Assembly: GCA_017465925.1 (NCBI GenBank)
Contig: JAFTVC010000012.1
Coordinates: 2,525-66,524 of the forward strand
DNA from: Clostridia bacterium
Lineage (GTDB): Bacteria > Bacillota > Clostridia > Christensenellales > UBA1242
Direction: 5' to 3'
Length of the DNA: 64,000 nt
Shown piece by piece: positions 848 through 63,847 of this stretch (its first letter is position 1; each line of letters starts with the position of its first letter). The notes below the pieces were generated by a model. That model was not told the origin of the DNA and made no database searches. It worked only from the letters and a program-made list of their open reading frames with translations. A program made the translations under genes and the position numbers.

Positions 848-1010
848 AACTTCCCTCCCAGATAATATCACACGTTAAAAGAAAACTAACGCAATTTTAT
901 TTTCTAATAACTTATAATATTTGAAACTATGATGCACTTCTTGTTATTATCATCATTTAGTAGTACAAAATTAAATTAAAATAAATTTAACATAACTTAA
1001 CTAATAACAA

Positions 1011-14720: not shown

Positions 14721-15000
14721 GTACTGTGATGGATGGAGAGGTAGCGGCACTCTGTAACTTGCAATCCGCTATAGCAAGGTTAAACGAATTTATGCGATAC
14801 CTATTTGTGGGTTTAAGTTGTCATTTTAAGTCGTGTTGAAAATAAGGCTTTATGCAATACGAGATTGTGAACCATGTGAGGACAGGAATGTAGCAACATT
14901 AAGCAATTCTTCTGTATGTGCCATAAATAACTTTATTGGAGCGAATAATTTGAACGACACTTGGAAGTAGCGTAGCCAGTAAATTCACTCACAGTTTTTT
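14721..15000 (+). ncRNA. ffs: Signal recognition particle RNA, long Bacillus-type (scRNA/ffs) with Alu domain
   Basis: Helix 8 core GAGG-ACA-GGAA-TGT-AGCA-AC: a GGAA tetraloop flanked by the AGG/AGCA symmetric loop. The 5' part GGAGAGGTAGCGGCACTCTGTAACTTGCAATCCGCTATAGCAAGG closely matches my recollection of the B. subtilis scRNA Alu domain. Terminal helix ACTGTGA (14723)/TCACAGT (14989) is followed by a U-run. There is no ORF. Confidence 0.85.
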
Positions 15001-24040: not shown

Positions 24041-24192
24041 ATAATTATGTGTCGTAGAAATTTTAGAAACTAAAATTTCTTATAAAATCCAAGATTTTAT
24101 CCTAAAACAGCCGTTTTAGCGACACAATTTGAATTATGTTTGTCGGCCAAATGAGAAAGTAAACTTTCTCGCTATCCCAACTTCACATAATA
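24041..24192 (+). repeat. Modular hairpin repeat, locus A: module X1 (24049-24125) + linker AATTTGAATTA + module W1 (24137-24192)
   Basis: X1 is about 85% identical to 28599-28676. W1 resembles 28435-28496. X folds as a GTGTCG/CGACAC closing stem around three hairpins. Confidence 0.8.
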
Positions 24193-24198
24193 TTAATT

Positions 24199-28198: not shown

Positions 28199-28231
28199 AA
28201 CTGATACAAAAAAACTAGTATCAGTTTTTTA
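28197..28231 (+). terminator. Intrinsic terminator after pdp
   Basis: ACTGATAC-loop-GTATCAGT followed by TTTTT. Confidence 0.75.
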
Positions 28232-28343
28232 TGTGTTAAATATTATGTCTTACTATTTTTCAACCACAACATCTATTATTTATTAAATATCAACAAAAAA
28301 CTTTAAACAGAGTCATTTAATCAATAAAAGGTGCATATATAAA

Positions 28344-28426
28344 CTATAAGAAGTAAATATTTTAACAAGTAAAATATTTGTTGCTTTTCGCAACTGCTAC
28401 TGCTTTCGCATTACCACTTCTTATAG
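28344..28426 (+). repeat. Modular hairpin repeat, module V1 (intact)
   Basis: Terminal inverted repeat CTATAAGAAGT/ACTTCTTATAG encloses hairpins AAATATTTTA-ACAAG-TAAAATATTT and GTTGC-TTTTC-GCAAC. Confidence 0.8.
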
Positions 28427-28434
28427 TTTGAAAC

Positions 28435-28496
28435 TTCGTCAGTCGGTCAAATGTGAATCCAAGCATTCCCGCTCTCCCGACTTCCTCGTTATAAAC
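28435..28496 (+). repeat. Modular hairpin repeat, module W2
   Basis: GTCGGTCAAATGTGAA...CCCGACTTC is related to W1 at 24137-24192. It is preceded by the linker TTTGAAAC. Confidence 0.6.
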
Positions 28497-28533
28497 TTTG
28501 TTCTAAACAACTAAATGTTTTTTTAGTAGAATT

Positions 28534-28768
28534 AGAAGTAAATATTTTAACAACTAAAATATTTGTTGCTTTTCGCAACTGCTACTGCTTTAAATTATGT
28601 GTCGTAGAAATTTTAAGAAATTAAATTTTCTTATAAAATACAAGATTTTATTCTAAAACTGCCGTTCTAGCGACACAATTTGAATTAGGCGTCGTTTATA
28701 TCAAATACAAATACAAGTTTTTGTGCTTGCATAAACTTCCTATAATACCGCACTACCACTTCTTATAG
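28534..28768 (+). repeat. Module V2 split by insertion of X2 (28599-28676) + linker + Y1 (28688-28747)
   Basis: 28534-28591 matches V1 up to GCTACTGCTTT. 28749-28768 (CGCACTACCACTTCTTATAG) matches the V1 continuation CGCATTACCACTTCTTATAG. The 157 nt between are X and Y modules that are also found elsewhere. Confidence 0.85.
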
Positions 28769-28797
28769 TTTAAAATATAATCAGTTATTAGAAAATT

Positions 28798-28953
28798 ATG
28801 GACCATATTGAATTAAGTATTCTAGCACTAACAATGGCAAAAGAGATATATTCAACATCATGCAAAGAAGATATTTGCGAAATGATAAAATTTCTCAACC
28901 TACTTATAAATAACTTACAATTTATGTTATGTGATAAGGACAAGAAGAATTAA
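28798..28953 (+). CDS. Small hypothetical ORF (51 aa, helical)
   Basis: ATG to TAA, MDHIELSILALTMAKEIYSTSCKEDICEMIKFLNLLINNLQFMLCDKDKKN. Below the ORF-track cutoff. No clear SD. Function unknown. Confidence 0.25.
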   Translation: MDHIELSILALTMAKEIYSTSCKEDICEMIKFLNLLINNLQFMLCDKDKKN

Positions 28954-29139: not shown

Positions 29140-29784
29140 ATGTCTTTTTACACAAATAACAGCAATTCAGTTTGTTGTCCCGGACCTATTAATGGCAACC
29201 CATTAAATGGACTATGTGAAAGAGTTTGCATAAGAACTACAAAAGTATTTGATTCAGCAATGAAACAATTATCTTTACAAAATGTGCAACACCCAGTTGA
29301 TTTTGAGAATGGCGAACCTCCATTACCTATTACATATATAGGCGCTCAAAGCGACCCTAACAATCCAAGTTTTATAACTAATCTTATAGTAGATAGATTA
29401 GTAGATAGACCAAATTATGCAAGAGTAAGCGGAATAGTTAATATTCCTATTATAATCAGTTTTACTGATGGAAACAACAACACAGGAAGTGCCACAAGTA
29501 CAACTACTGTACCATTTGATGTTGTATTATTCGTACCACAACCATCTATTATTCCATACAGAGTTGAAGGTTTTGGAGCACTTACAAGTAACATAGGAAC
29601 TTATAGCGGAAATAGTATTTTCACTATTGACGAATGCGTTACAATTATAATAAGAGTTGTTGTAGATGCAGAGTTATGTGTTCCATCTTATGGCTATTGT
29701 CAAATACCACCTGCTATTGAATTTTCACAAGACCAATGTGCCGGAGTTTTTGAATTACCATTATTCCCAACAGCAACACAATAG
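29140..29784 (+). CDS. Hypothetical Cys-containing, beta-rich protein without a signal peptide (possible spore-surface protein)
   Basis: 214 aa with a strong SD (AAAGGAGA), an N-terminal CC...C...C cluster (SVCCPGP..GLCERVCIRTTKVFD) and a C-terminal C..C..C. It has its own terminator. Confidence 0.6.
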   Translation: MSFYTNNSNSVCCPGPINGNPLNGLCERVCIRTTKVFDSAMKQLSLQNVQHPVDFENGEPPLPITYIGAQSDPNNPSFITNLIVDRLVDRPNYARVSGIVNIPIIISFTDGNNNTGSATSTTTVPFDVVLFVPQPSIIPYRVEGFGALTSNIGTYSGNSIFTIDECVTIIIRVVVDAELCVPSYGYCQIPPAIEFSQDQCAGVFELPLFPTATQ

Positions 29785-29916: not shown

Positions 29917-31182
29917 TTACATATTGTGTATTATGTAGTCTTTAAACTCAACCATTTCATCAGTTAAAGTAAGCCCATTATGCTCATAGTACAGTATCAG
30001 CAACATATTAGTACAATAATGCTCATCTTCTAATAAATCTTCTCTATTACTAGCATAAACCGAGTCTACAAACTTAATAAAAACATCATTTAAATTTATA
30101 GTTTTAAATCCATTTTTTATTAAATATTCAACGACATTTAATACGCTATCACTCAATACTAATTTTACACGCTTTAAATCTTTATATGAAAAATGTGCTA
30201 CTTTTACAATTACATCATTATAAGTAAACGCATAGTCTTCCCCATAACACATACCTTGCCTAATAGTTTCTAAAAACAACTGCAACTTTTTATCTTCATG
30301 ACCAACTGAAAATAAGGCATTGTTTATATGATAATTTATTCTAGAATTTTTTAATTCAATCAAGCATTTAAAAATAGCCAGACATAAATCTATTTCACAA
30401 TAGTTTAATATGAAATTGATTAAACTATCATTATCTTCTCTTTTAATTATTTCCTTTAAATCATTTTTAACAAAACAAGTATAAAATAAAGAATTAATTC
30501 TTGTCTTTATAGCCTCTACTGGTATTTTATCAATTTCTGCTACATCACAATTTTCCTTGTAATTAAAGTACCAATAACTTATATATGGGTCAGTATTATC
30601 AAGTTGCCAAAGATTATCTATTGTTGCCCTTGCCTCTTTAAAATTATTTGCCAATGCTAATTTACAAAATATTTTTTTAGAAAATATAATATTATGCCTA
30701 TCTACTTCAAAATTGCTCATTTCTTTTTTTATGCCATTGGCAAGTTCTGCATATTGCACTAGCGGAAGTTCAGCATTTTGGAATATTAAATTTTTAAAAA
30801 ACAAAGAAGCATTCTGCTTATTATCTAAATCCAACATACACGTTAAAAACAAAACTAACGGCGTAGGAAACCTGCGAGATTGTGCAATCGTTTTATAAAA
30901 GTGCAACTTAGCCAAATCATAGTTTTTTGCATTAAAATGGACTATTCCTATTAAACTCGTTTCAACATTACTTTTACTATTTATAAATAATATTTCCAAA
31001 GCCTTATTCATATCAAGTAATGCACCAAAATCATTTTTTTTATTAAGTTTTATTGCTGAATTCTCAATCAAATTTAGCACATAATGTTTATCAAAAGAAA
31101 GAATAGTACACTTTTTACTACTATTCTCTTCCTTCTTCTCGCTCATTTTTCTATATTTAGATAATTCAATAATTTCAGCCAT
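29917..31182 (-). CDS. Hypothetical all-helical (TPR-like?) protein
   Basis: 421 aa ORF with no recognisable catalytic motif. It is co-oriented with the flanking hslO: its start (31182) lies 39 nt downstream of the hslO stop (31222). Confidence 0.55.
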   Translation of the reverse strand: MAEIIELSKYRKMSEKKEENSSKKCTILSFDKHYVLNLIENSAIKLNKKNDFGALLDMNKALEILFINSKSNVETSLIGIVHFNAKNYDLAKLHFYKTIAQSRRFPTPLVLFLTCMLDLDNKQNASLFFKNLIFQNAELPLVQYAELANGIKKEMSNFEVDRHNIIFSKKIFCKLALANNFKEARATIDNLWQLDNTDPYISYWYFNYKENCDVAEIDKIPVEAIKTRINSLFYTCFVKNDLKEIIKREDNDSLINFILNYCEIDLCLAIFKCLIELKNSRINYHINNALFSVGHEDKKLQLFLETIRQGMCYGEDYAFTYNDVIVKVAHFSYKDLKRVKLVLSDSVLNVVEYLIKNGFKTINLNDVFIKFVDSVYASNREDLLEDEHYCTNMLLILYYEHNGLTLTDEMVEFKDYIIHNM

Positions 31183-41502: not shown

Positions 41503-41655
41503 AAATAGAAACTATGTGATGATAAATTTAAATAAAATTTAATTTTGTGTTGCGTAACGCAACCGCCACAACAAGTTGTGCATCACAGTTTGAATTAGGC
41601 GTCGTTTATATAAAATACAAAAACAAGTTTTTGTGCTTGCATAAACTTGCTATAA
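41503..41655 (+). repeat. Modular hairpin repeat, locus C: 5' arm + module Z (41546-41587) + linker TTTGAATTA + module Y (41597-41655)
   Basis: The Z-Y core (~105 nt, 41546-41650) is about 96% identical (4 mismatches) to the reverse complement of 63327-63431. The 5' arm matches more loosely. Y also matches 28688-28747. Confidence 0.85.
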
Positions 41656-41661
41656 TTTTAT

Positions 41662-48415: not shown

Positions 48416-49552
48416 TTAAATTTTACTTTTCCTACTCTGCCTATCTACATTGAGAATAACCCCTATCGCGCTCATGAAAACAACCAAACTTGTTGAGCCA
48501 GCGGAAATAAATGGAAGAGGAACGCCGGTGGGCGGAATTGAGCCTGTAACAACTGCTAAATTTATTAGTATTTGAACTCCAATTACCGATGCAACCCCAA
48601 CTGAAAGTAAGCAACCAAATCTGTCTTTTGCCCTTAACGCAACTTTTATTATTAAATAAATAAGAGCAATAAAAACTAGAATTAAAAGCAAACAACCGAT
48701 AAATCCAAATTCTTCTCCTATTATTGAAAAGATGAAATCACTTTCAGAAAATGGCAAGAATTGATATTTTTGTCTTGAATTAAACAATCCTACTCCAAAC
48801 CAGCCACCACTACCAAGTGAATAAAGTGATTGAATTAATTGAAAGCCCTCGCCTTGCGGAGATGCCCAAGGGTCAATAAATGCAAATAATCTTTTTAATC
48901 TATAAGGCTCTAAAATTATAAGCAACGGTACAACAGCAACTGCTGGAACTGCAAGCATTGTTAGTTGTTTCAACTTCATACCGCCCACAAAAAGCATAAT
49001 AAGCATAACAATTCCAACGCACATTGTAATACTCATATTAGGTTCTAACATAATTAAAATGCACATTAGAACTCCCACAATCAAAATTGGCAAATATGAT
49101 TTAAATTTTAATGCTTCAAATTTTTTACCACATAAAACACAAACACAAAAAATAATGAAACCAAACTTTGCTATTTCACTTCCTTGTATCGTGAAACCCG
49201 GTAATCCTATCCATCTATTAGCACCATAATTTGAAACCCCAATCCCTGGAACAAAAACCAATATTAAGAATACAAAAGAAATAATGCAAGCAACCCATTT
49301 AAATTTATAATAAATATGATAATCAATTTTATATGTAATAATTAAAGCAATAATTCCCAGCACCACGCCAATTATTTGCTTTATTAAAAAATGATATTCA
49401 TTATTATAATTGTTAAGTGCTGAATAAGAACTTGCACTGTAAACCATAATGCAACCAAAAATAGCAAGTGATAAAACAATTATAAAAATCTTTAAACTTA
49501 ATTTACTTGACGACTTTGGCAACAAATTAGGATATGTTTTATATTTTAGCAT
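48416..49552 (-). CDS. SEDS-family peptidoglycan glycosyltransferase (SpoVE/FtsW)
   Basis: 378 aa with 10 TM helices and a conserved PPTGVPLPFISAGSTS end. Lies downstream of murD, as with Bacillus spoVE. Confidence 0.9.
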   Translation of the reverse strand: MLKYKTYPNLLPKSSSKLSLKIFIIVLSLAIFGCIMVYSASSYSALNNYNNEYHFLIKQIIGVVLGIIALIITYKIDYHIYYKFKWVACIISFVFLILVFVPGIGVSNYGANRWIGLPGFTIQGSEIAKFGFIIFCVCVLCGKKFEALKFKSYLPILIVGVLMCILIMLEPNMSITMCVGIVMLIMLFVGGMKLKQLTMLAVPAVAVVPLLIILEPYRLKRLFAFIDPWASPQGEGFQLIQSLYSLGSGGWFGVGLFNSRQKYQFLPFSESDFIFSIIGEEFGFIGCLLLILVFIALIYLIIKVALRAKDRFGCLLSVGVASVIGVQILINLAVVTGSIPPTGVPLPFISAGSTSLVVFMSAIGVILNVDRQSRKSKI

Positions 49553-50880
49553 TTATTTACCCATTCTTTAAAATACTTTCCACGCTCTTCATAATTACTA
49601 AACTCATCAAAACTGGCACAGGCAGGACTTAATAAAACAATTTCACTTGCCTTTGCATTGTCCTTTGCATCATTTAATGCATCACACAAATTATTGAGTA
49701 CAACAAAATTAGAATAACCAACATTTATTGCTGACCATTTCATTTTTTCTCTTGTTTCACCGAAAATATAGCACTTAACATTATTACTTAATGATTTAAA
49801 AAAGTTTTCAAATTCTTCACCCTTATCACTCCCACCTAAAAGTAAATGAACTCTTTTATTTTTATAAGCGGTTAAAGCATTAATGGTAGCATCTATGTTA
49901 GTTGCCTTACTATCATTTACATATTCAACACCATCAACGTTTTTTACAAACTCTTGTCTGTGTTCAAGTGCATTAAAATTTTCAATTACATTCCTTACAT
50001 TATCAATGTCTACATTTTCAATAATGCCAACCAAAACAGTTGCTAAAATATTTAAGTAGTTATGCTCCCCTTTTAACTTTAAATTTTCCAAATAAGATAT
50101 AAGTTGCTCATTTTTTCCTATATTTAAAATAATAGACTTGTCCCTTATAAAACCATCAACGTTGTAGTTACATTTACTGAAATATATTTTTTTTGCTTTA
50201 CAGTGAATTGCTTTTACTAATTTATTTATATTTTCATCATCTTTATTTAAAATGCAAATATCTTTTCTTTTTTGATTTTTATAAATATTTAATTTTGATT
50301 TATAGTAATCATTTAAATCATCATATCTATCTAAATGGTCTGGCTTTAAATTTAAAATGACAGAAATTTTTGGTCTAAACTTTTTTATTGTTTCTAGTTG
50401 AAAACTACTCATTTCTAATACGACATAATCCTGCATTTCAATACTATCCACTACTGAAATAAAAGGAATTCCTATATTGCCACATTTATGGACTTTATAT
50501 TTTTGACTTAATACTTGACTTATTAGTTCAGTAGTCGTTGTCTTACCATTAGTACCTGTTATCGCAATAATTTTTTTAGATTTACAAAAATTAAAAGCAA
50601 ACTCTACTTCCCCAATCACATTAATTTTATTTAACTTTGCCATTTTAAGTAATTTAGTTTCAAGCGAAACCCCAGGGCTTACTATAATTAAGTCTAAAAG
50701 TGAAGCATCAATTAAAAACTCACTAAACGGCAAAATTATTTTATTATCTATATATTTACTTACATCTTGATTGTCATCATATAAATAAATTATTGCTTGT
50801 CTTTTCTTTAAAAATTCAAGCAATGCTAATCCTGTTCTTGACATACCATATATCAAAATTCGTTTGCCTGTTACTTTCAT
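49546..50880 (-). CDS. murD: UDP-N-acetylmuramoylalanine--D-glutamate ligase
   Basis: GITGTNGKTTTT P-loop. Position is between mraY and the SEDS gene. Confidence 0.93.
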   Translation of the reverse strand: MKVTGKRILIYGMSRTGLALLEFLKKRQAIIYLYDDNQDVSKYIDNKIILPFSEFLIDASLLDLIIVSPGVSLETKLLKMAKLNKINVIGEVEFAFNFCKSKKIIAITGTNGKTTTTELISQVLSQKYKVHKCGNIGIPFISVVDSIEMQDYVVLEMSSFQLETIKKFRPKISVILNLKPDHLDRYDDLNDYYKSKLNIYKNQKRKDICILNKDDENINKLVKAIHCKAKKIYFSKCNYNVDGFIRDKSIILNIGKNEQLISYLENLKLKGEHNYLNILATVLVGIIENVDIDNVRNVIENFNALEHRQEFVKNVDGVEYVNDSKATNIDATINALTAYKNKRVHLLLGGSDKGEEFENFFKSLSNNVKCYIFGETREKMKWSAINVGYSNFVVLNNLCDALNDAKDNAKASEIVLLSPACASFDEFSNYEERGKYFKEWVNKC

Positions 50881-50916
50881 ATTACACCCCTACATATGCA
50901 ATTTTAGTTATTAAAG

Positions 50917-51915
50917 TTATATAGTAAAATATATGCAAACCACACTTATTAATATGCTAATAATAGAATAACAAACTACAATCTTATTTTCAGTTACTCC
51001 TTTTTTTTCAAAGTGATGATGCAAAGGTGCCATAAGGAATAATCTTTTTTTAGTTTTCTTATAATAGAAAACTTGTAATATGACTGAAATAGTAGTAATT
51101 ACAAACATAAGACAGATAAAAGGCAAATATAAATACAAGCCACTAAAAACTGCTACTGAATTAATGAAACCACCTATTGCAAGTGAGCCTACATCACCCA
51201 TAAATATTTTTGCTTTATTAGTGTTAAACATCAAGAACGCTAGCAAACATCCAACAAAGGCAAAAGAAATCAATACAAGTGAATTTAATTCGCCTATTAT
51301 AACACTACCAGCACCATAATTATATAACCAACTTGAATATAAGAAAATTAATATGCCAAATGATAAAATAGCAATAGCACTTACAGAACTAGCTAGTCCA
51401 TCTAAACCATCAGTTAAATTTACTGCATTAGATACCGCTAAATACAAGAAAAATACAATAGGAATTATCCACGCACCAATTTCAATTTCATAAAAACTAA
51501 AAGGCACAATAATTGCATTTGGAACAAGTGGCGAATTATAGCAAAATAATGCAACAATTAAAGCAAGTCCACCTTGACCTATTATTTTTTGAATTGGAGT
51601 TAAGCCTAAATTTCTATTGAATTTAAGTTTGATAAAATCATCTAAAAAACCTATCAAACCATAGCCAAGAGTAACAAGCAATGTCATAAACATTAAAAAT
51701 GAATTATCGTTATAAAAAATTATTGCAACAATACTTAATCCAAGCAGAAAGATAAGCCCACCCATTGTAGGTGTACCTTGCTTACTATTGTGAAAATCAA
51801 CATATTCTAAAATGTTTTGCCCTAACTTCTTTTTCCGTAAATATCTTATTATTGGAATTGCCAAACAAAATGTTACTATAAAAGCCAAAAGTAATGCAAC
51901 TAGTGCTATTTTCAT
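50917..51915 (-). CDS. mraY: Phospho-N-acetylmuramoyl-pentapeptide transferase
   Basis: 332 aa polytopic protein with NLTDGLDGLA and APLHHHFE. Confidence 0.96.
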   Translation of the reverse strand: MKIALVALLLAFIVTFCLAIPIIRYLRKKKLGQNILEYVDFHNSKQGTPTMGGLIFLLGLSIVAIIFYNDNSFLMFMTLLVTLGYGLIGFLDDFIKLKFNRNLGLTPIQKIIGQGGLALIVALFCYNSPLVPNAIIVPFSFYEIEIGAWIIPIVFFLYLAVSNAVNLTDGLDGLASSVSAIAILSFGILIFLYSSWLYNYGAGSVIIGELNSLVLISFAFVGCLLAFLMFNTNKAKIFMGDVGSLAIGGFINSVAVFSGLYLYLPFICLMFVITTISVILQVFYYKKTKKRLFLMAPLHHHFEKKGVTENKIVVCYSIISILISVVCIYFTI

Positions 51916-51925
51916 TTTTTCACCA

Positions 51926-53344
51926 TCACTTAAATTTTTCTACTTCTTCATAATCACTATATGAAACATTTACTGCTTTTAAATCTTGATAATCCTCCAC
52001 GCCCTTGCCACAAATTAATATAATGCTATCTTTATTTGCAATTTCATTAGCGAATTTTATTGCTTTTGCTCTATCTTTCTCAACTGTATAAGGTTTACTT
52101 ATATTTTTAGCCAAATCAACAAAAATATCGCTTTCATTTTCATATCTTGGATTGTCCGAAGTTAATATTATATAGTCAGCAAATTTACTTACAATTATTC
52201 CCATATCGGCTCGTTTTAAACTATCCCTATTACCACTACTACCAAACACAACAATTAAATCATTTGTATATGGCTTGATAGTTGACAAAACATTAAGTAG
52301 TGCATCTGGTGTATGCGCATAGTCTATGCATACAATATAGTCCTTTACACTAATAAAGTCTAACCTACCTTTAATTTGAGGAGTAGTTGCAATAATCTTT
52401 TGAATTTTCTTCAAAGAATAACCAAATCCAAGCAAAACTAATGTTGATGCTAATATATTATAAACATTATGCAAACCGCAATTATCAAAATTAAAATTAA
52501 CAACTTCATCATTAAAGACAACATCAAAATTCATAGAAAACAACTCTTGCTGAAAATTTTTTGAATACAAATCTGATTTTTTTATAGTTGAATAAGTTTT
52601 ACAATTTTTCGTTATCTTATAATTTGCTCCATAATTATCATCTACATTAATTATGACTTGTTCGCAATCGTTTTGCAAAAATTTAAACTTTGTATTTGCA
52701 TATTCATCCATTGTTTTAAAATAATCTAAATGGTCTTGCGTAAGGTTAGTAAAAATCCCATATTTAAATTTTAAACCATAAATTTTATTTAAATAAATAG
52801 AATGTGCAGATACTTCCATAACAACAATTTCTACCCCACTTTTATACATTTGATATAAAATTTTATGTAAATCTAAACTATCAGGAGTTGTTAAAGTAGT
52901 ATCATATTTTTTATTGCCTATATAGTAACCTGTCGTTCCTATTATTCCAACTTTTTGTTTCAATTTTTCAAAAGCATTTTTTAGAATAAATGTTATTGAT
53001 GTTTTACCATTAGTTCCAGTAACTCCAATTAATTGCATTTTAGTATGGCAGTTTTCATAAAAGTTTGAAATTAGAACGCACATTTCTTTTCTAACATTGT
53101 CAACTTTAATTTGAATAATATCTTTTATTTCTTTATTTATTTTTTCAACTAAAAACACTTGGCAACCTTGCTTTGCTAATTCAGGAATAAACGAATGGGC
53201 ATCTATCTTTTCCCCTACAACACAACAAAAAATTGTACTTTCTTTAATTTGATTTGAATTATCGGTAATATTTAAAATTTCAATATCATTAAAATTTATG
53301 CTTTCAATAATTTTTACGCCCTTTAATAGTTTTGATAATTTCAT
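51926..53344 (-). CDS. murE: UDP-MurNAc-L-Ala-D-Glu--diamino acid ligase
   Basis: GVTGTNGKTS P-loop. 472 aa. Fits the dcw position. Substrate (mDAP versus Lys) was not determined. Confidence 0.9.
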   Translation of the reverse strand: MKLSKLLKGVKIIESINFNDIEILNITDNSNQIKESTIFCCVVGEKIDAHSFIPELAKQGCQVFLVEKINKEIKDIIQIKVDNVRKEMCVLISNFYENCHTKMQLIGVTGTNGKTSITFILKNAFEKLKQKVGIIGTTGYYIGNKKYDTTLTTPDSLDLHKILYQMYKSGVEIVVMEVSAHSIYLNKIYGLKFKYGIFTNLTQDHLDYFKTMDEYANTKFKFLQNDCEQVIINVDDNYGANYKITKNCKTYSTIKKSDLYSKNFQQELFSMNFDVVFNDEVVNFNFDNCGLHNVYNILASTLVLLGFGYSLKKIQKIIATTPQIKGRLDFISVKDYIVCIDYAHTPDALLNVLSTIKPYTNDLIVVFGSSGNRDSLKRADMGIIVSKFADYIILTSDNPRYENESDIFVDLAKNISKPYTVEKDRAKAIKFANEIANKDSIILICGKGVEDYQDLKAVNVSYSDYEEVEKFK

Positions 53345-60617: not shown

Positions 60618-60646
60618 AAAAAGTAATTAGAAACTAATTACTTTTT
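60618..60646 (-). terminator. Hairpin overlapping the csm6 stop codon
   Basis: Minus strand reads AAAAAGTAATTAG-TTT-CTAATTACTTTTT, then ACTTTTAATAAAAAAAT. The U-tract is not ideal. Confidence 0.4.
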
Positions 60647-61977
60647 AACATTAATTTAAGTTCATTTATAATTTCTATATTCAACCTTTCAAAGAATATA
60701 TAATCTTCATCTTTTGTATTGTTTGGGTACGCATGTAAAATTAATTCTCTCAATTTATGTAAAACTTCTAACGGTGTTGTATTAGTTAGTGTTTTATAAT
60801 CAGACTTGCTTACATAAGTAATTTCATGTGCAACCTTATTTCTTATACTATCTTCTACACTTCTTAAAAGTTTTAAAGTGTTTAGAACCTTTTCATTACA
60901 ACCAAAATGTTCATATAAATCTATTAAATGTTTTGTTGCTAAAAAAGTATCATATTTAACTTCATTTAAAACATCACTAACATCATTATCTTTAATCTTA
61001 TCTAGAATTAGCCTTAAACCATTATTTGTTTTTATAGTAATTTTACTTAAATCAAATACATCACTTACAAGCTTTTTAGACAACAAATATAAAATTGGAG
61101 TTAGCCTAACAGTAAAATCAGTTATTAAGTTTTTCTTTTCTTTTATTTGCATTACATTATAAGAATTTAAAATATTTCTTAAATCAGTATCAGAAGTACT
61201 ATTACAATAAAAATTTGCAATTTTGCATTTAGTTTTTACATTCTCAAAATCGCTATTTTGATATTTATTACCTATCCCACATAAATCAATTAACTTTGCA
61301 TCTATTTCAAATGTTTCTTTTTCTAACTCATTTAAAGCATAAAAATAATTATAATCTTCCACAAAAGATTTTACTTTTAAATAGCAAGAAGACTTCCTAA
61401 AAGTTCTTAACTCCACTTCTCTACATCTATTTGTATAAGTATCTACATAACTATCAAAAACATTTATTAACGCATTCTCTTCAACACCGCTTGAATGTGG
61501 AACATTTGCATTAGACTTCTTTTCAGGTGTTGTAACCTGTATTGCCTTCATCTTTCTATTATTTACTACTAAATCAAGACATAAAGTTGATATAATTTGT
61601 GGAGTACCAGATGTTATATTTACATAATATTCACAATCTCCATTTTCGCCAACTATACCATCTATAATATTAGTAAACACTTTAAATGCTTCAAAGTTTG
61701 ATGCATCTTCAACATATAATCTTTTAGGTATTAATTCAAATTCTTTATGATGTCCTTCATAAAGTCCTTTTTCATTTGCAGATATGCCTTTGTATAACTG
61801 ATTTAAGCAATTTAAGTATCTATTATCTTCAAGATGCCTTTTGTACATTTCTTCTGTTAATAAAAGATATATTTTATCAGGCTTATATTGTCTAGAAATA
61901 TGCAAAAGTGGACCATCATATCCGTTTCTAATTGGGTCAGTATCACCAATAGGTGAAATTAAAATTATTTTTTTCAT
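60634..61977 (-). CDS. csm6: Csm6-family CARF-HEPN ribonuclease (type III CRISPR ancillary, cOA-activated)
   Basis: 447 aa from MKKIILISPIGDTDPIRNGYDGPLLHISRQYKPDK, very close to my recollection of the streptococcal Csm6 N-terminus. CARF motif NITSGTPQ and C-terminal HEPN RNKVAHE (Rx4H). Start at 61977 is preceded by AAAGGA. The track ORF is extended into the degenerate repeat. Confidence 0.85.
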   Translation of the reverse strand: MKKIILISPIGDTDPIRNGYDGPLLHISRQYKPDKIYLLLTEEMYKRHLEDNRYLNCLNQLYKGISANEKGLYEGHHKEFELIPKRLYVEDASNFEAFKVFTNIIDGIVGENGDCEYYVNITSGTPQIISTLCLDLVVNNRKMKAIQVTTPEKKSNANVPHSSGVEENALINVFDSYVDTYTNRCREVELRTFRKSSCYLKVKSFVEDYNYFYALNELEKETFEIDAKLIDLCGIGNKYQNSDFENVKTKCKIANFYCNSTSDTDLRNILNSYNVMQIKEKKNLITDFTVRLTPILYLLSKKLVSDVFDLSKITIKTNNGLRLILDKIKDNDVSDVLNEVKYDTFLATKHLIDLYEHFGCNEKVLNTLKLLRSVEDSIRNKVAHEITYVSKSDYKTLTNTTPLEVLHKLRELILHAYPNNTKDEDYIFFERLNIEIINELKLMLKSN

Positions 61978-62015
61978 ATTTATTCCTTTATAATTAGATA
62001 TTTTTAAAATAAATT

Positions 62016-63287
62016 TCACATTTCCAATATGGTTGGATTAATATAAACTTCTAGTGTGAAGTAATGAACTATTTAGTATTCATCCAATATGGTTTGATTA
62101 GTATTGAAATGAAGTTCCATTATGATGCTAATGGAGCAAAGTATTCATCCAATATGGTTGGATTAGTATGCAAGAATGTTTAACGATGCTTACAAAAGAA
62201 ACCATAGTATTCATCCAATATGGTTGGATTAGTATGATAGTGGCGATAGGGGTTGTTGGGCAAGCAATAAACGTATTCATCCAATATGGTTGGATTAGTA
62301 TTTATTGATTTTTTACTCATTATCTACCTCTCTTTCTTTGTATTCATCCAATATGGTTGGATTAGTATGCTGTTAAGTAGTCCCTACCAATAGAGCCTGT
62401 TTTAAGTATTCATCCAATATGGTTGGATTAGTATAAAATAATGAAGTACTACAAAATTCAAATTGTAGACAGTATTCATCCAATATGGTTGGATTAGTAT
62501 AAAATAATGAAGTACTACAAAATTCAAATTGTAGACAGTATTCATCCAATATGGTTGGATTAGTATTAAGAGAGGCGTTGGTGTGTATTATGAGGGCACA
62601 AGAGTATTCATCCAATATGGTTGGATTAGTATGTAAGAAAAACAGAAAAAGTAAACGAGAAATCATAGTCGTATTCATCCAATATGGTTGGATTAGTATC
62701 AACAGAGAAGATGCTAAGTACAAACTTTATTTGTGTATTCATCCAATATGGTTGGATTAGTATGTAATAAATAACAAAAAAATCCACATTGATTATAGAC
62801 CGTATTCATCCAATATGGTTGGATTAGTATTTAAGTCAAGCCTACTAATAGCTAATTGCTCAGTGAGTATTCATCCAATATGGTTGGATTAGTATCATGG
62901 AAGGCATTGATTATTTCTTCTGTGTCAGTCATGTATTCATCCAATATGGTTGGATTAGTATAGAGAAGTATTTGACCAAAATGACATTGAATATTAGTAT
63001 TCATCCAATATGGTTGGATTAGTATAGTAATTTTCTAAATGAAGAAATGAAAGGTTATTCTGTATTCATCCAATATGGTTGGATTAGTATTCAAAGTGCT
63101 GGGGGTTAAAAATTACAAAAATTAATGTATTCATCCAATATGGTTGGATTAGTATGAAGAAGACTTTTCACTAACAAGTGGCAGTGTTATGGGTATTCAT
63201 CCAATATGGTTGGATTAGTATTGATGTAACGGATGTGATTGATAACTATGCAGTTTTAGTATTCATCCAATATGGTTGGATTAGTAT
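62016..63287 (-). CRISPR. CRISPR array: 19 canonical and 1 degenerate 29-nt repeats, 19 spacers (18 of 35-38 nt, plus a terminal 31-nt one)
   Basis: Plus-strand repeat is GTATTCATCCAATATGGTTGGATTAGTAT with internal stem ATCCAA/TTGGAT. Repeat starts: 62016 (degenerate), 62076 (1 mismatch), 62141, 62207, 62273, 62340, 62406, 62472, 62538, 62604, 62671, 62735, 62802, 62867, 62933, 62997, 63062, 63127, 63193, 63259. Minus-strand transcription is inferred from three things: decay at the 62016 end, cas1-cas2 and the AT-rich leader at the 63288 side, and a minus-strand repeat ending ...GGATGAATAC. Confidence 0.97.
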
Positions 63288-63313
63288 AGGAAAAAATGAA
63301 ACATTTTCCTTTA

Positions 63314-63341
63314 ATTTTAATATTTTAGGAAGTTTATGCAA
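63314..63341 (-). promoter_or_regulatory. Candidate leader promoter for the array
   Basis: Minus strand reads TTGCAT-N16-TAAAAT, ending about 26 nt before the first repeat. The -35 lies inside repeat module Y. Confidence 0.3.
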
Positions 63342-63474
63342 GCACAAAAACTTGTTTTTGTATTTGATATAAACGACGCCTAATTCAAACTGTGATGCAC
63401 AACTTGTTGTGGTGGTTGCGGTACGCAACACAAAATTAAACTTTTTTAATTTTATCATCACATAGTTTCTATTT
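63322..63474 (-). repeat. Modular hairpin repeat, locus D (inverted copy of locus C: arm + Z + linker + Y)
   Basis: The reverse complement of 63327-63431 matches the Z-Y core 41546-41650 with 4 mismatches. The arm aligns more loosely, with an indel. One Z-core mismatch falls in the loop of the GTTGCG/CGCAAC hairpin. Confidence 0.85.
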
Positions 63475-63568: not shown

Positions 63569-63847
63569 TTAAATAATATTTATTTTTGAATATTCATCAT
63601 TTTGTGTTAAACTTTTACGGACAATATTTTTCACATTTTTAACACATAAAATATCACACTTATCTTTTTTTCGCAAAATCATTTTTAAATTAGTTGCCAA
63701 TTCTTCAATAATAGGCTTTGATAATTCCCCAATAAAAATAGATTTTTGCAACTTGTACAAGTATCTTTTACATATTTTATGGACTTCGGTTAAAATTTTA
63801 CTCCCCTTTTCATCCATTACAATATCATACGCTACTATAACCAACAT
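63569..63847 (-). CDS. cas2: CRISPR-associated endoribonuclease Cas2
   Basis: 92 aa. MLVIVAYDI N-terminus. Position is between cas1 and the array. Confidence 0.88.
   Translation of the reverse strand: MLVIVAYDIVMDEKGSKILTEVHKICKRYLYKLQKSIFIGELSKPIIEELATNLKMILRKKDKCDILCVKNVKNIVRKSLTQNDEYSKINII

Follow-up and report, generated by a model that had tools for sequence, protein, structure and literature searches.

A probably mobile, mosaic family of small cloverleaf-forming repeats in an uncultured clostridial lineage

Short hairpin-forming modules fill the spacer downstream of the pdp gene in the genome fragment considered here, and one of these modules is interrupted by others. This arrangement raises the question of whether the modules are parts of a mobile family, and of how such a family would relate to the small repeats known from other bacteria. 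The window, which is the whole stretch of 64,000 nucleotides that was analysed, has a G+C content of 29% and a GC skew that is negative throughout; it appears to lie within one replichore, the direction of replication being inferred. It carries the SpoIIIA operon, housekeeping genes, an SRP RNA and a type III-A CRISPR-Cas locus. The MAGs in which homologues of one neighbouring protein occur bear the labels Clostridiales, Christensenellales or Firmicutes, and the host is an uncultured, low-GC, spore-forming Firmicute. A first-pass annotation, made from the letters alone, had named five modules (V, W, X, Y and Z) in different combinations at four loci and had read them as mobile. The evidence described below makes it probable that they belong to a lineage-specific family of small, non-autonomous DNA repeats, mosaic in build and mobilised in trans. 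The description of the family is based on about 20 module copies at about 10 loci.

The nested element and the module inventory

The intact copy of V, V1, is a cloverleaf (AAACTATAAGAAGT...ACTTCTTATAGTTT) at 28341-28429 on the plus strand and served as the reference for the second copy, V2. In a BLAST search against the window, V1 positions 6-63 matched 28534-28591 at 98% and positions 64-83 matched 28749-28768 at 95%. Since the two halves of V1 match on either side, V2 is V1 interrupted by exactly 157 nt (28592-28748), its 5' part, V2a, lying at 28531-28591 (repeat family D6) and its 3' part, V2b, at 28749-28771, both on the plus strand. The left part of the insert is 92% identical to the X module at 24043-24129, and the right part, Y, is 95% identical to 41591-41656 and 97% identical to the reverse complement of 63321-63387. 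These module matches have E values of 1e-26 to 1e-32 within 64 kb. The boundaries of the insert are exact, GCTTT/157 nt/CGCA, with no target-site duplication, and the insertion point coincides with the predicted loop of the third hairpin of V. On the plus strand, the insert comprises X_B (28592-28681), which scores 94 bits with the covariance model R1, and the tail Y_B (AATTAGGCGTCG...CCTATAATAC; 28683-28748), which is 95-97% identical to the Y copies at loci C and D and 84-93% identical to Y in the contigs L010, L011 and L055 from other organisms. The nested insertion noted in the first-pass annotation is thus borne out, as is the idea that units containing X and Y insert into other units. 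The part of that idea which treated a single X or Y as the moving unit is not supported; the recurrent unit is a two-domain composite.

The remainder of this spacer, locus B, which lies between pdp and a small ORF, is filled with further modules on the plus strand. V1 is followed by a tail, W_B (28431-28496), identified by its alignment to the W copy at locus A and by its own fold; the two W copies are only about 65% identical, with conserved blocks. A spacer at 28497-28530, unique in the window, separates this V1-W element from V2 and its tail, and may be what had been called Z. That module is dropped from the inventory, since 28497-28535 has no second copy in the window; V, W, X and Y are kept. 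V2 is followed by a short tail, T (AAATATAATCAGTTATTAGAAAAT), at 28773-28796, which has an inverted match of 91% to 899-930 (pair I4), abuts the start codon of a 51-aa ORF and is kept in the strain represented by contig L076.

The downstream genes can be described briefly. The 51-aa ORF (MDHIELSILALTMAKEIY...; 28798-28953) has no Pfam match and is probably a real small gene, because both strain L076 and the nearest species (L058 9753-9920) have it conserved upstream of the next gene. This next gene (29140-29784) encodes a 214-aa protein with more than 800 homologues in clostridial MAGs and no Pfam domain. It adjoins the gene of a 421-aa protein (29917-31182), also with no Pfam domain, and the synteny of the two is kept across relatives.

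BLAST of the modules against the window placed X, Y and W at three other loci, so the claimed recurrence in different combinations stands. Locus A, the spacer between the Gate and FakA genes, carries on its plus strand the cloverleaf X_A (AATTATGTGTCG...CGACACAATTT; 24043-24130), 92% identical to X_B, and the tail W_A (AATTATGTTTGTCGG...CTTCACATAATAT; 24132-24193), which ends 5 nt from the fakA stop codon. Locus C, between a P-type ATPase gene and a convergent DUF3792 gene, carries on the plus strand another cloverleaf, U_C (41503-41590), 94% identical to its copy at locus D and found also in strain contig L077, followed by the tail Y_C (41592-41658), which ends 3 nt from the DUF3792 stop codon. 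At locus D, inside the leader of the CRISPR array, a U_D-Y_D element occupies 63318-63474 on the minus strand (U_D being 63474-63388) and forms with locus C an inverted repeat of 130 nt at 94% (I1). The four loci of the first-pass annotation are to be supplemented by a fifth, and the cloverleaf U and the tail T had been missed. Locus E (899-960, minus strand), between the spoIIIAH terminator and asp23, consists of a closing-stem hairpin (ATGATG...CATCAT), TTTCAAAT and a T tail, and it is linked through pair I4 to 28765-28796.

A repeat finder independently returned the same families (D3, D4, D6, I1 and I2). The degenerate motif of the X/Y 5' end occurs five times in the window against 0.11 expected, and searches of the window with terminus and linker motifs gave no further loci. 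Independent assemblies of other samples (L053, L054 and L056) contain the same sequences at 100% identity, and the modules are thus not assembly artefacts. All modules are intergenic, in spacers between housekeeping genes. They are co-oriented within each of loci A, B, C and D, and at loci A, B, C and E they lie 3' of the intrinsic terminator of the upstream gene in the same orientation as that gene, a regularity which does not hold in the MAG contig L010.

Shared termini, unit architecture and folds

All modules share the termini 5'-AA(T/AC)TA...TA(A/GT)TT-3' (AAACTATG...CATAGTTT). The linker TTTGAATTA/TTTGAAAC, which the first-pass annotation had taken as a conserved piece joining the modules, equals the 3' terminus of one module, a single G and the 5' terminus of the next. 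Its sequence is conserved as stated; because all modules have the same termini, it is better read as two abutting ends than as a separate part. The junction between modules is accordingly an invariant ...TTT-G-AA.... Individual modules have 55-95 nt, 21-32% G+C and 2-4 helices, and each is closed by its own terminal stem of 7-14 bp. The left modules X, X' (a variant of X found in other organisms), U and V are four-way-junction cloverleaves, and the right modules Y, W and T are simpler tails. The mobile unit is probably one left cloverleaf plus one right tail, from terminus to terminus. Such units measure 147-160 nt and contain no ORF. Seven combinations were seen, namely X-W, X-Y, X'-Y, U-Y, V-W, V-T and short-hairpin-T, and no unit at the loci examined has a repeated middle module.

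The predicted folds of X, U and V consist of a closing stem and three hairpins, with z-scores of -3.8/-4.8 for X, -2.6 for U and -5.2 for V (V1, -22.3 kcal/mol). RNAalifold applied to X_A, X_B and three X' copies gave a four-way junction of 29 pairs, six of which show compensatory changes on both sides between X and X'. In this alignment, 94.5% of the cells of the cloverleaf are paired, against at most 53% when the partners are slid by 1-3 columns, and the observed covariation score was reached by none of 500 shuffles; the independent covariation events are few, because the sequences represent essentially two lineages, X and X'. A covariance model built from X and X' only recovers U at 52 bits (U_C, E = 9e-9) and 46 bits. 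V was missed by the same model, which yielded no additional copies either in the window or in the relatives. V and U have in common hairpin 2 (GTTGC...GCAAC), and the inner hairpin of W has two compensatory pairs between W_A and W_B. Folding of whole composites indicated that W and Y are also self-closing, with z-scores down to -7.5. The hairpins proposed by the first-pass annotation are thus supported by substitutions that preserve the fold of X.

Composites containing W are predicted to be 7-13 kcal/mol more stable on the reverse strand, through G-U pairs (-47.1 vs -40.3 and -49.2 vs -36.3 kcal/mol). Three single changes, in the W_A stem, in hairpin 3 of X_B and in the closing stem of U in L077 (a T-to-C change), would be A-C mismatches if the annotated strand is the acting one but G-U pairs if it is the opposite strand, and there is one counter-example. 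These changes are no more than suggestive as to the strand of action.

Presence and absence in strains and species

A separate line of evidence for mobility comes from a strain with 96-97% identity to the window (contig L079; Logan assembly of SRR24653862), which has a precise empty site at locus A. This site reads GCTTAATATAT/TAATTTTATTC (GCTTAATATAT/TAATTTT), and in the window 151 nt (24043-24193) are inserted at this point. ATAT stands on both sides of the insert, but it was rejected as a 4-nt target-site duplication: the ATAATAT at the right end of the insert is the conserved right end of Y-tailed units elsewhere, where it occurs as CCTATAATAT/CACATAATAT next to unrelated left flanks. Because ATAATAT belongs to the conserved end of the element, the insertion at locus A is one without duplication. 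A further candidate, the 8-nt direct repeat TATAAACT around V1-W_B, was discarded as a duplication as it would cut the closing stem of V1.

Other loci in the same close strain (L079, L077 and L076) show different states. At locus C, U-Y is kept apart from a precise deletion of 8 nt (GTTTGAAT), which coincides with the U/Y junction (L077 2539-2545; 41587-41594 of the window). At locus B, contig L076 has a V-type module that is uninterrupted at the GCTTT/CGCA position. This module is present as its 3' two-thirds, to which the first 20 nt of Y are joined directly on the left (L076 1-90), and its third hairpin forms a cleaner palindrome (GCTAATGCATTAGC). The fusion could stem from recombination between modules or from another insertion, and recombination alone could explain the rearrangement.

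The nearest species, with 84% identity in the 214-aa protein, has a spacer of about 90 nt between pdp and the small ORF, which reads CATATATAATAAATATAATTATG; in the window, 425 nt of modules lie between CATATATAAAC and the same small ORF. X-W is absent from the Gate-FakA spacer of this species, and modules are absent at the syntenic sites of four relatives of about 80-84% identity (L058, L062, L063 and L078). One other MAG (L010 and L011) and the metagenome contig L055 contain X'-Y units at three unrelated housekeeping loci, next to HU, tRNA and membrane-protein genes. In these units, Y is 84-93% identical and X about 70%. The copies in related genomes predicted by a mobile family thus exist outside the window, and together with the empty site at locus A and the absence in the nearest species they uphold the reading of a mobile modular family.

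The wider searches gave little more. Scanning of genome contigs with the degenerate X/Y 5' motif returned 50 chance matches and the one related MAG (L010, L011); apparently, the window's own species is missing from the scanned genome contigs, or its repeats are unassembled there. The Y core found a single contig, L055, in the metagenome scan. On the 5' side of X'-Y, at 60-230, this contig has an alternating purine/pyrimidine stretch (CGCGCGCACGCGCACCCGCATACACGCG) and tandem GGTTAGGTTATT-like repeats. BLAST searches of plasmid and phage records returned no match, and scans of viral contigs gave nothing, or 17-nt chance matches only. Five contig ends from independent assemblies fall within modules; contig L057 ends at the U/Y junction, and a third-strain contig, L080, ends inside Y_C. 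These breaks are weak evidence for multiple copies, because some Logan contig ends fall outside repeats.

Known repeat families, rival explanations and a possible mechanism

The first-pass annotation had found the modules reminiscent of pneumococcal BOX elements or of hairpin elements derived from IS200/IS605. BOX elements are small, gene-less, modular repeats of Streptococcus pneumoniae with the architecture boxA-boxB(n)-boxC, thought to be mobilised in trans and restricted to a lineage (PMC3184786). The likeness holds insofar as both are gene-less intergenic repeats of Firmicutes, confined to one lineage, in which few module types are variably combined and form stable multi-hairpin folds. 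It fails for the architecture, which here is one left plus one right module instead of A-B(n)-C; moreover, every module has the same inverted termini, the left modules form four-way junctions and the host belongs to another bacterial class. This comparison was made by description only. REPs and their BIME clusters are mosaic and palindromic, with short junction motifs, lie between convergent genes or in 3' UTRs, and lack target-site duplications, the single REPs being G+C-rich stem-loops of 20-40 nt that alternate in orientation within a BIME (PMC3184786, PMC2817692). The clusters in the window are likewise mosaic, palindromic and duplication-free, with junction motifs and similar sites, but they consist of A+T-rich, multi-hairpin modules of 55-95 nt that are co-oriented within each cluster, and no RAYT was seen in about 74 kb.

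Among the alternatives to the proposed family, the one that survives best, although we regard it as unlikely, takes the units as genuine PATEs derived from IS200/IS605, or as REP-like units, moved by a Y1 HUH enzyme (TnpA or RAYT) and set at a fixed tetranucleotide at their left end. The absence of target-site duplications, the precise empty and filled sites and the near-end hairpins of conserved structure are all shared with PATEs; the insertion point in a hairpin loop of the V1 RNA fold also fits, and the invariant TTT-G-AA junction could be a cleavage or target site. However, the left flanks of the independent insertions all differ (ATAT, CTTT, ATAG, TTAT and AGAT), so the fixed target site postulated by the first-pass annotation is not found. 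Orientation is also mixed: of the five loci of the window, a small sample, three are on the plus and two on the minus strand, within what is apparently a single replichore, whereas IS200/IS605 elements have a strict lagging-strand bias. The modules are co-oriented within clusters, unlike the alternating REPs of BIMEs, and neither TnpA nor TnpB nor RAYT was found in the roughly 74 kb examined around the copies. Variable flanks and mixed orientation are not what canonical IS200/IS605 elements would show, and a specific tie to them is not supported.

Classical MITEs, a still less likely explanation, would be deletion derivatives of DDE-type insertion sequences, with the stems as terminal inverted repeats and with duplications that are very short or eroded. 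IS3/IS481-type elements end in TG...CA, and the cloverleaf ends TGTG...CACA resemble these. Inverted termini are present on every module and composite, for instance ATTATGTG...CACATAAT (8/8 positions) in X-W, and ATAT flanks the insert at locus A on both sides. RUP, Correia and bcr1 elements share with the present units a length below 200 bp, inverted termini, long stem-loops, intergenic sites, the lack of a transposase gene and presence/absence polymorphism between strains. What speaks against MITEs is that the right-hand ATAT is part of the conserved element end found at other loci with different left flanks, and that the nested insertion (GCTTT/CGCA) has no duplication at all, so that neither of the two checkable insertions shows one. 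MITEs also differ in that the present units are modular, and terminal inverted repeats alone leave unexplained why the internal hairpins are kept by compensatory change.

Functional structured RNAs, either small RNA genes or cis-acting 3'-UTR and leader elements spread by duplication or recombination for the use of the host, are an improbable source of the modules. Besides the compensatory changes and the much better folding of W on one strand through G-U pairs, their location could be taken in favour of such a role. Loci A and C lie between a stop codon and a shared bidirectional terminator, so the reverse strand of the modules would be the 3' UTR of fakA and DUF3792, respectively. The locus D unit lies between a strong promoter-like site (TTTGCA-18-TGnTATAAT; 63565-63536, minus strand) and the first CRISPR repeat, and would therefore form part of the pre-crRNA leader transcript. 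The strand expected in transcripts is, however, inconsistent, antisense at A and C and sense at D. The modules are dispensable at locus A in a strain of 96-97% identity and missing in sister species that have the same genes, and one unit interrupts another. In searches with Rfam 15, only the SRP RNA passes its gathering score in the window (bacterial large SRP RNA, 14724-14994, 128.5 bits); the best hit in 28200-28900 has E of about 6, and the modules have no relevant match even at E up to 10. ARAGORN made no tRNA or tmRNA call. No convincing terminator was predicted in any module, and promoter scans found no consistent or convincing promoter in them. Y, which ends in TATAAT, was considered as an outward promoter and rejected, for want of an acceptable -35 box and because the scan gave nothing at this position. 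No host function of the modules is required by the data.

The suggestion that U-Y is a CRISPR leader sequence, with its other copies left over from arrays that were lost or duplicated, is hardly credible: a U-Y copy does stand next to the leader-proximal repeat of a type III-A array, but the locus C copy has no repeat nearby, Y occurs also with X in V2 and with X' beside HU, tRNA and membrane-protein genes, a genomic context that speaks against relics, and the promoter-like site upstream of the element fits insertion into a pre-existing leader.

At locus D, U-Y makes up 157 of the approximately 280 nt of this leader and stops about 29 nt from the first repeat (63288), with cas1-cas2 upstream on the minus strand. 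The type III-A system itself, transcribed from the minus strand, comprises cas10/csm1-5, cas6, cas1, cas2 (63569-63847), the array (62076-63308) and csm6 (60634-62019), and corresponds to L056 2716-9997. The array has 19 repeats of GTATTCATCCAATATGGTTGGATTAGTAT, the distal one at 62076 being degenerate, and two neighbouring spacers, those that follow the repeats at 62406 and 62472, have the same sequence. Just outside the window, at L056 570-1046, at least four tRNA-like genes lie between a Met gamma-lyase gene and cas10.

The reading that we favour remains that of a lineage-specific family of small, trans-mobilised DNA repeats. No transposase gene was reported for the window by the first-pass annotation, and none was found among the scanned or tabulated ORFs, a set which covers ORFs of at least 90 aa apart from the three at 49546-53344, nor in 10 kb beyond the window or beside the copies in L010 and L011. 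An enzyme encoded elsewhere and acting in trans would recognise the conserved termini or the folded structure. The absence of duplications would favour a single-strand or site-specific type of enzyme over a DDE transposase, and an HUH/Y1-like single-strand transposase appears the likelier because the insertions are precise and duplication-free and it is the fold rather than the sequence that is conserved. The units insert into AT-rich intergenic DNA and at times into one another, V2 being an example. Left and right domains may be re-assorted by recombination at the shared TTT-G-AA junction or by the use of alternative ends of adjacent units, which would give rise to the mosaic of seven combinations. 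Structures in 3' UTRs and a longer CRISPR leader transcript would then be side effects on the host, and not the reason for the family to exist.

A more far-reaching interpretation, which we hold to be doubtful, sees in the units a new class of mobile DNA defined by structure, in which cloverleaves with universal termini would be moved without duplication by a structure-recognising enzyme, would be prone to nesting and would swap domains. If such an enzyme preferred the loops and termini of other copies, the nesting would be accounted for, as would the invariant junctions from terminus to terminus, and the swap of left and right domains would be part of its mechanism.

In either case, these small, non-autonomous, mosaic intergenic repeats, whose closest functional counterparts are BOX, REP/BIME and MITE elements, are members of no named family. 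The family is previously undescribed; it belongs to a known type of selfish repeat in bacteria and does not amount to a new biological system. An uncultured and poorly known lineage of clostridia thereby gains a repeat family with clear limits, and an exact pair of empty and filled sites is available for it, which is rare for short repeats derived from metagenomes. Assemblies from short reads are broken by the elements at positions that can be foreseen; the elements also change the shape of 3' UTRs and of a CRISPR leader, and they could be used to mark strains. Should the mobilising enzyme be identified, cloverleaves that move without duplication and freely re-assort their domains could reveal an unusual transposition chemistry; otherwise, they would represent one more lineage-specific family of selfish repeats.
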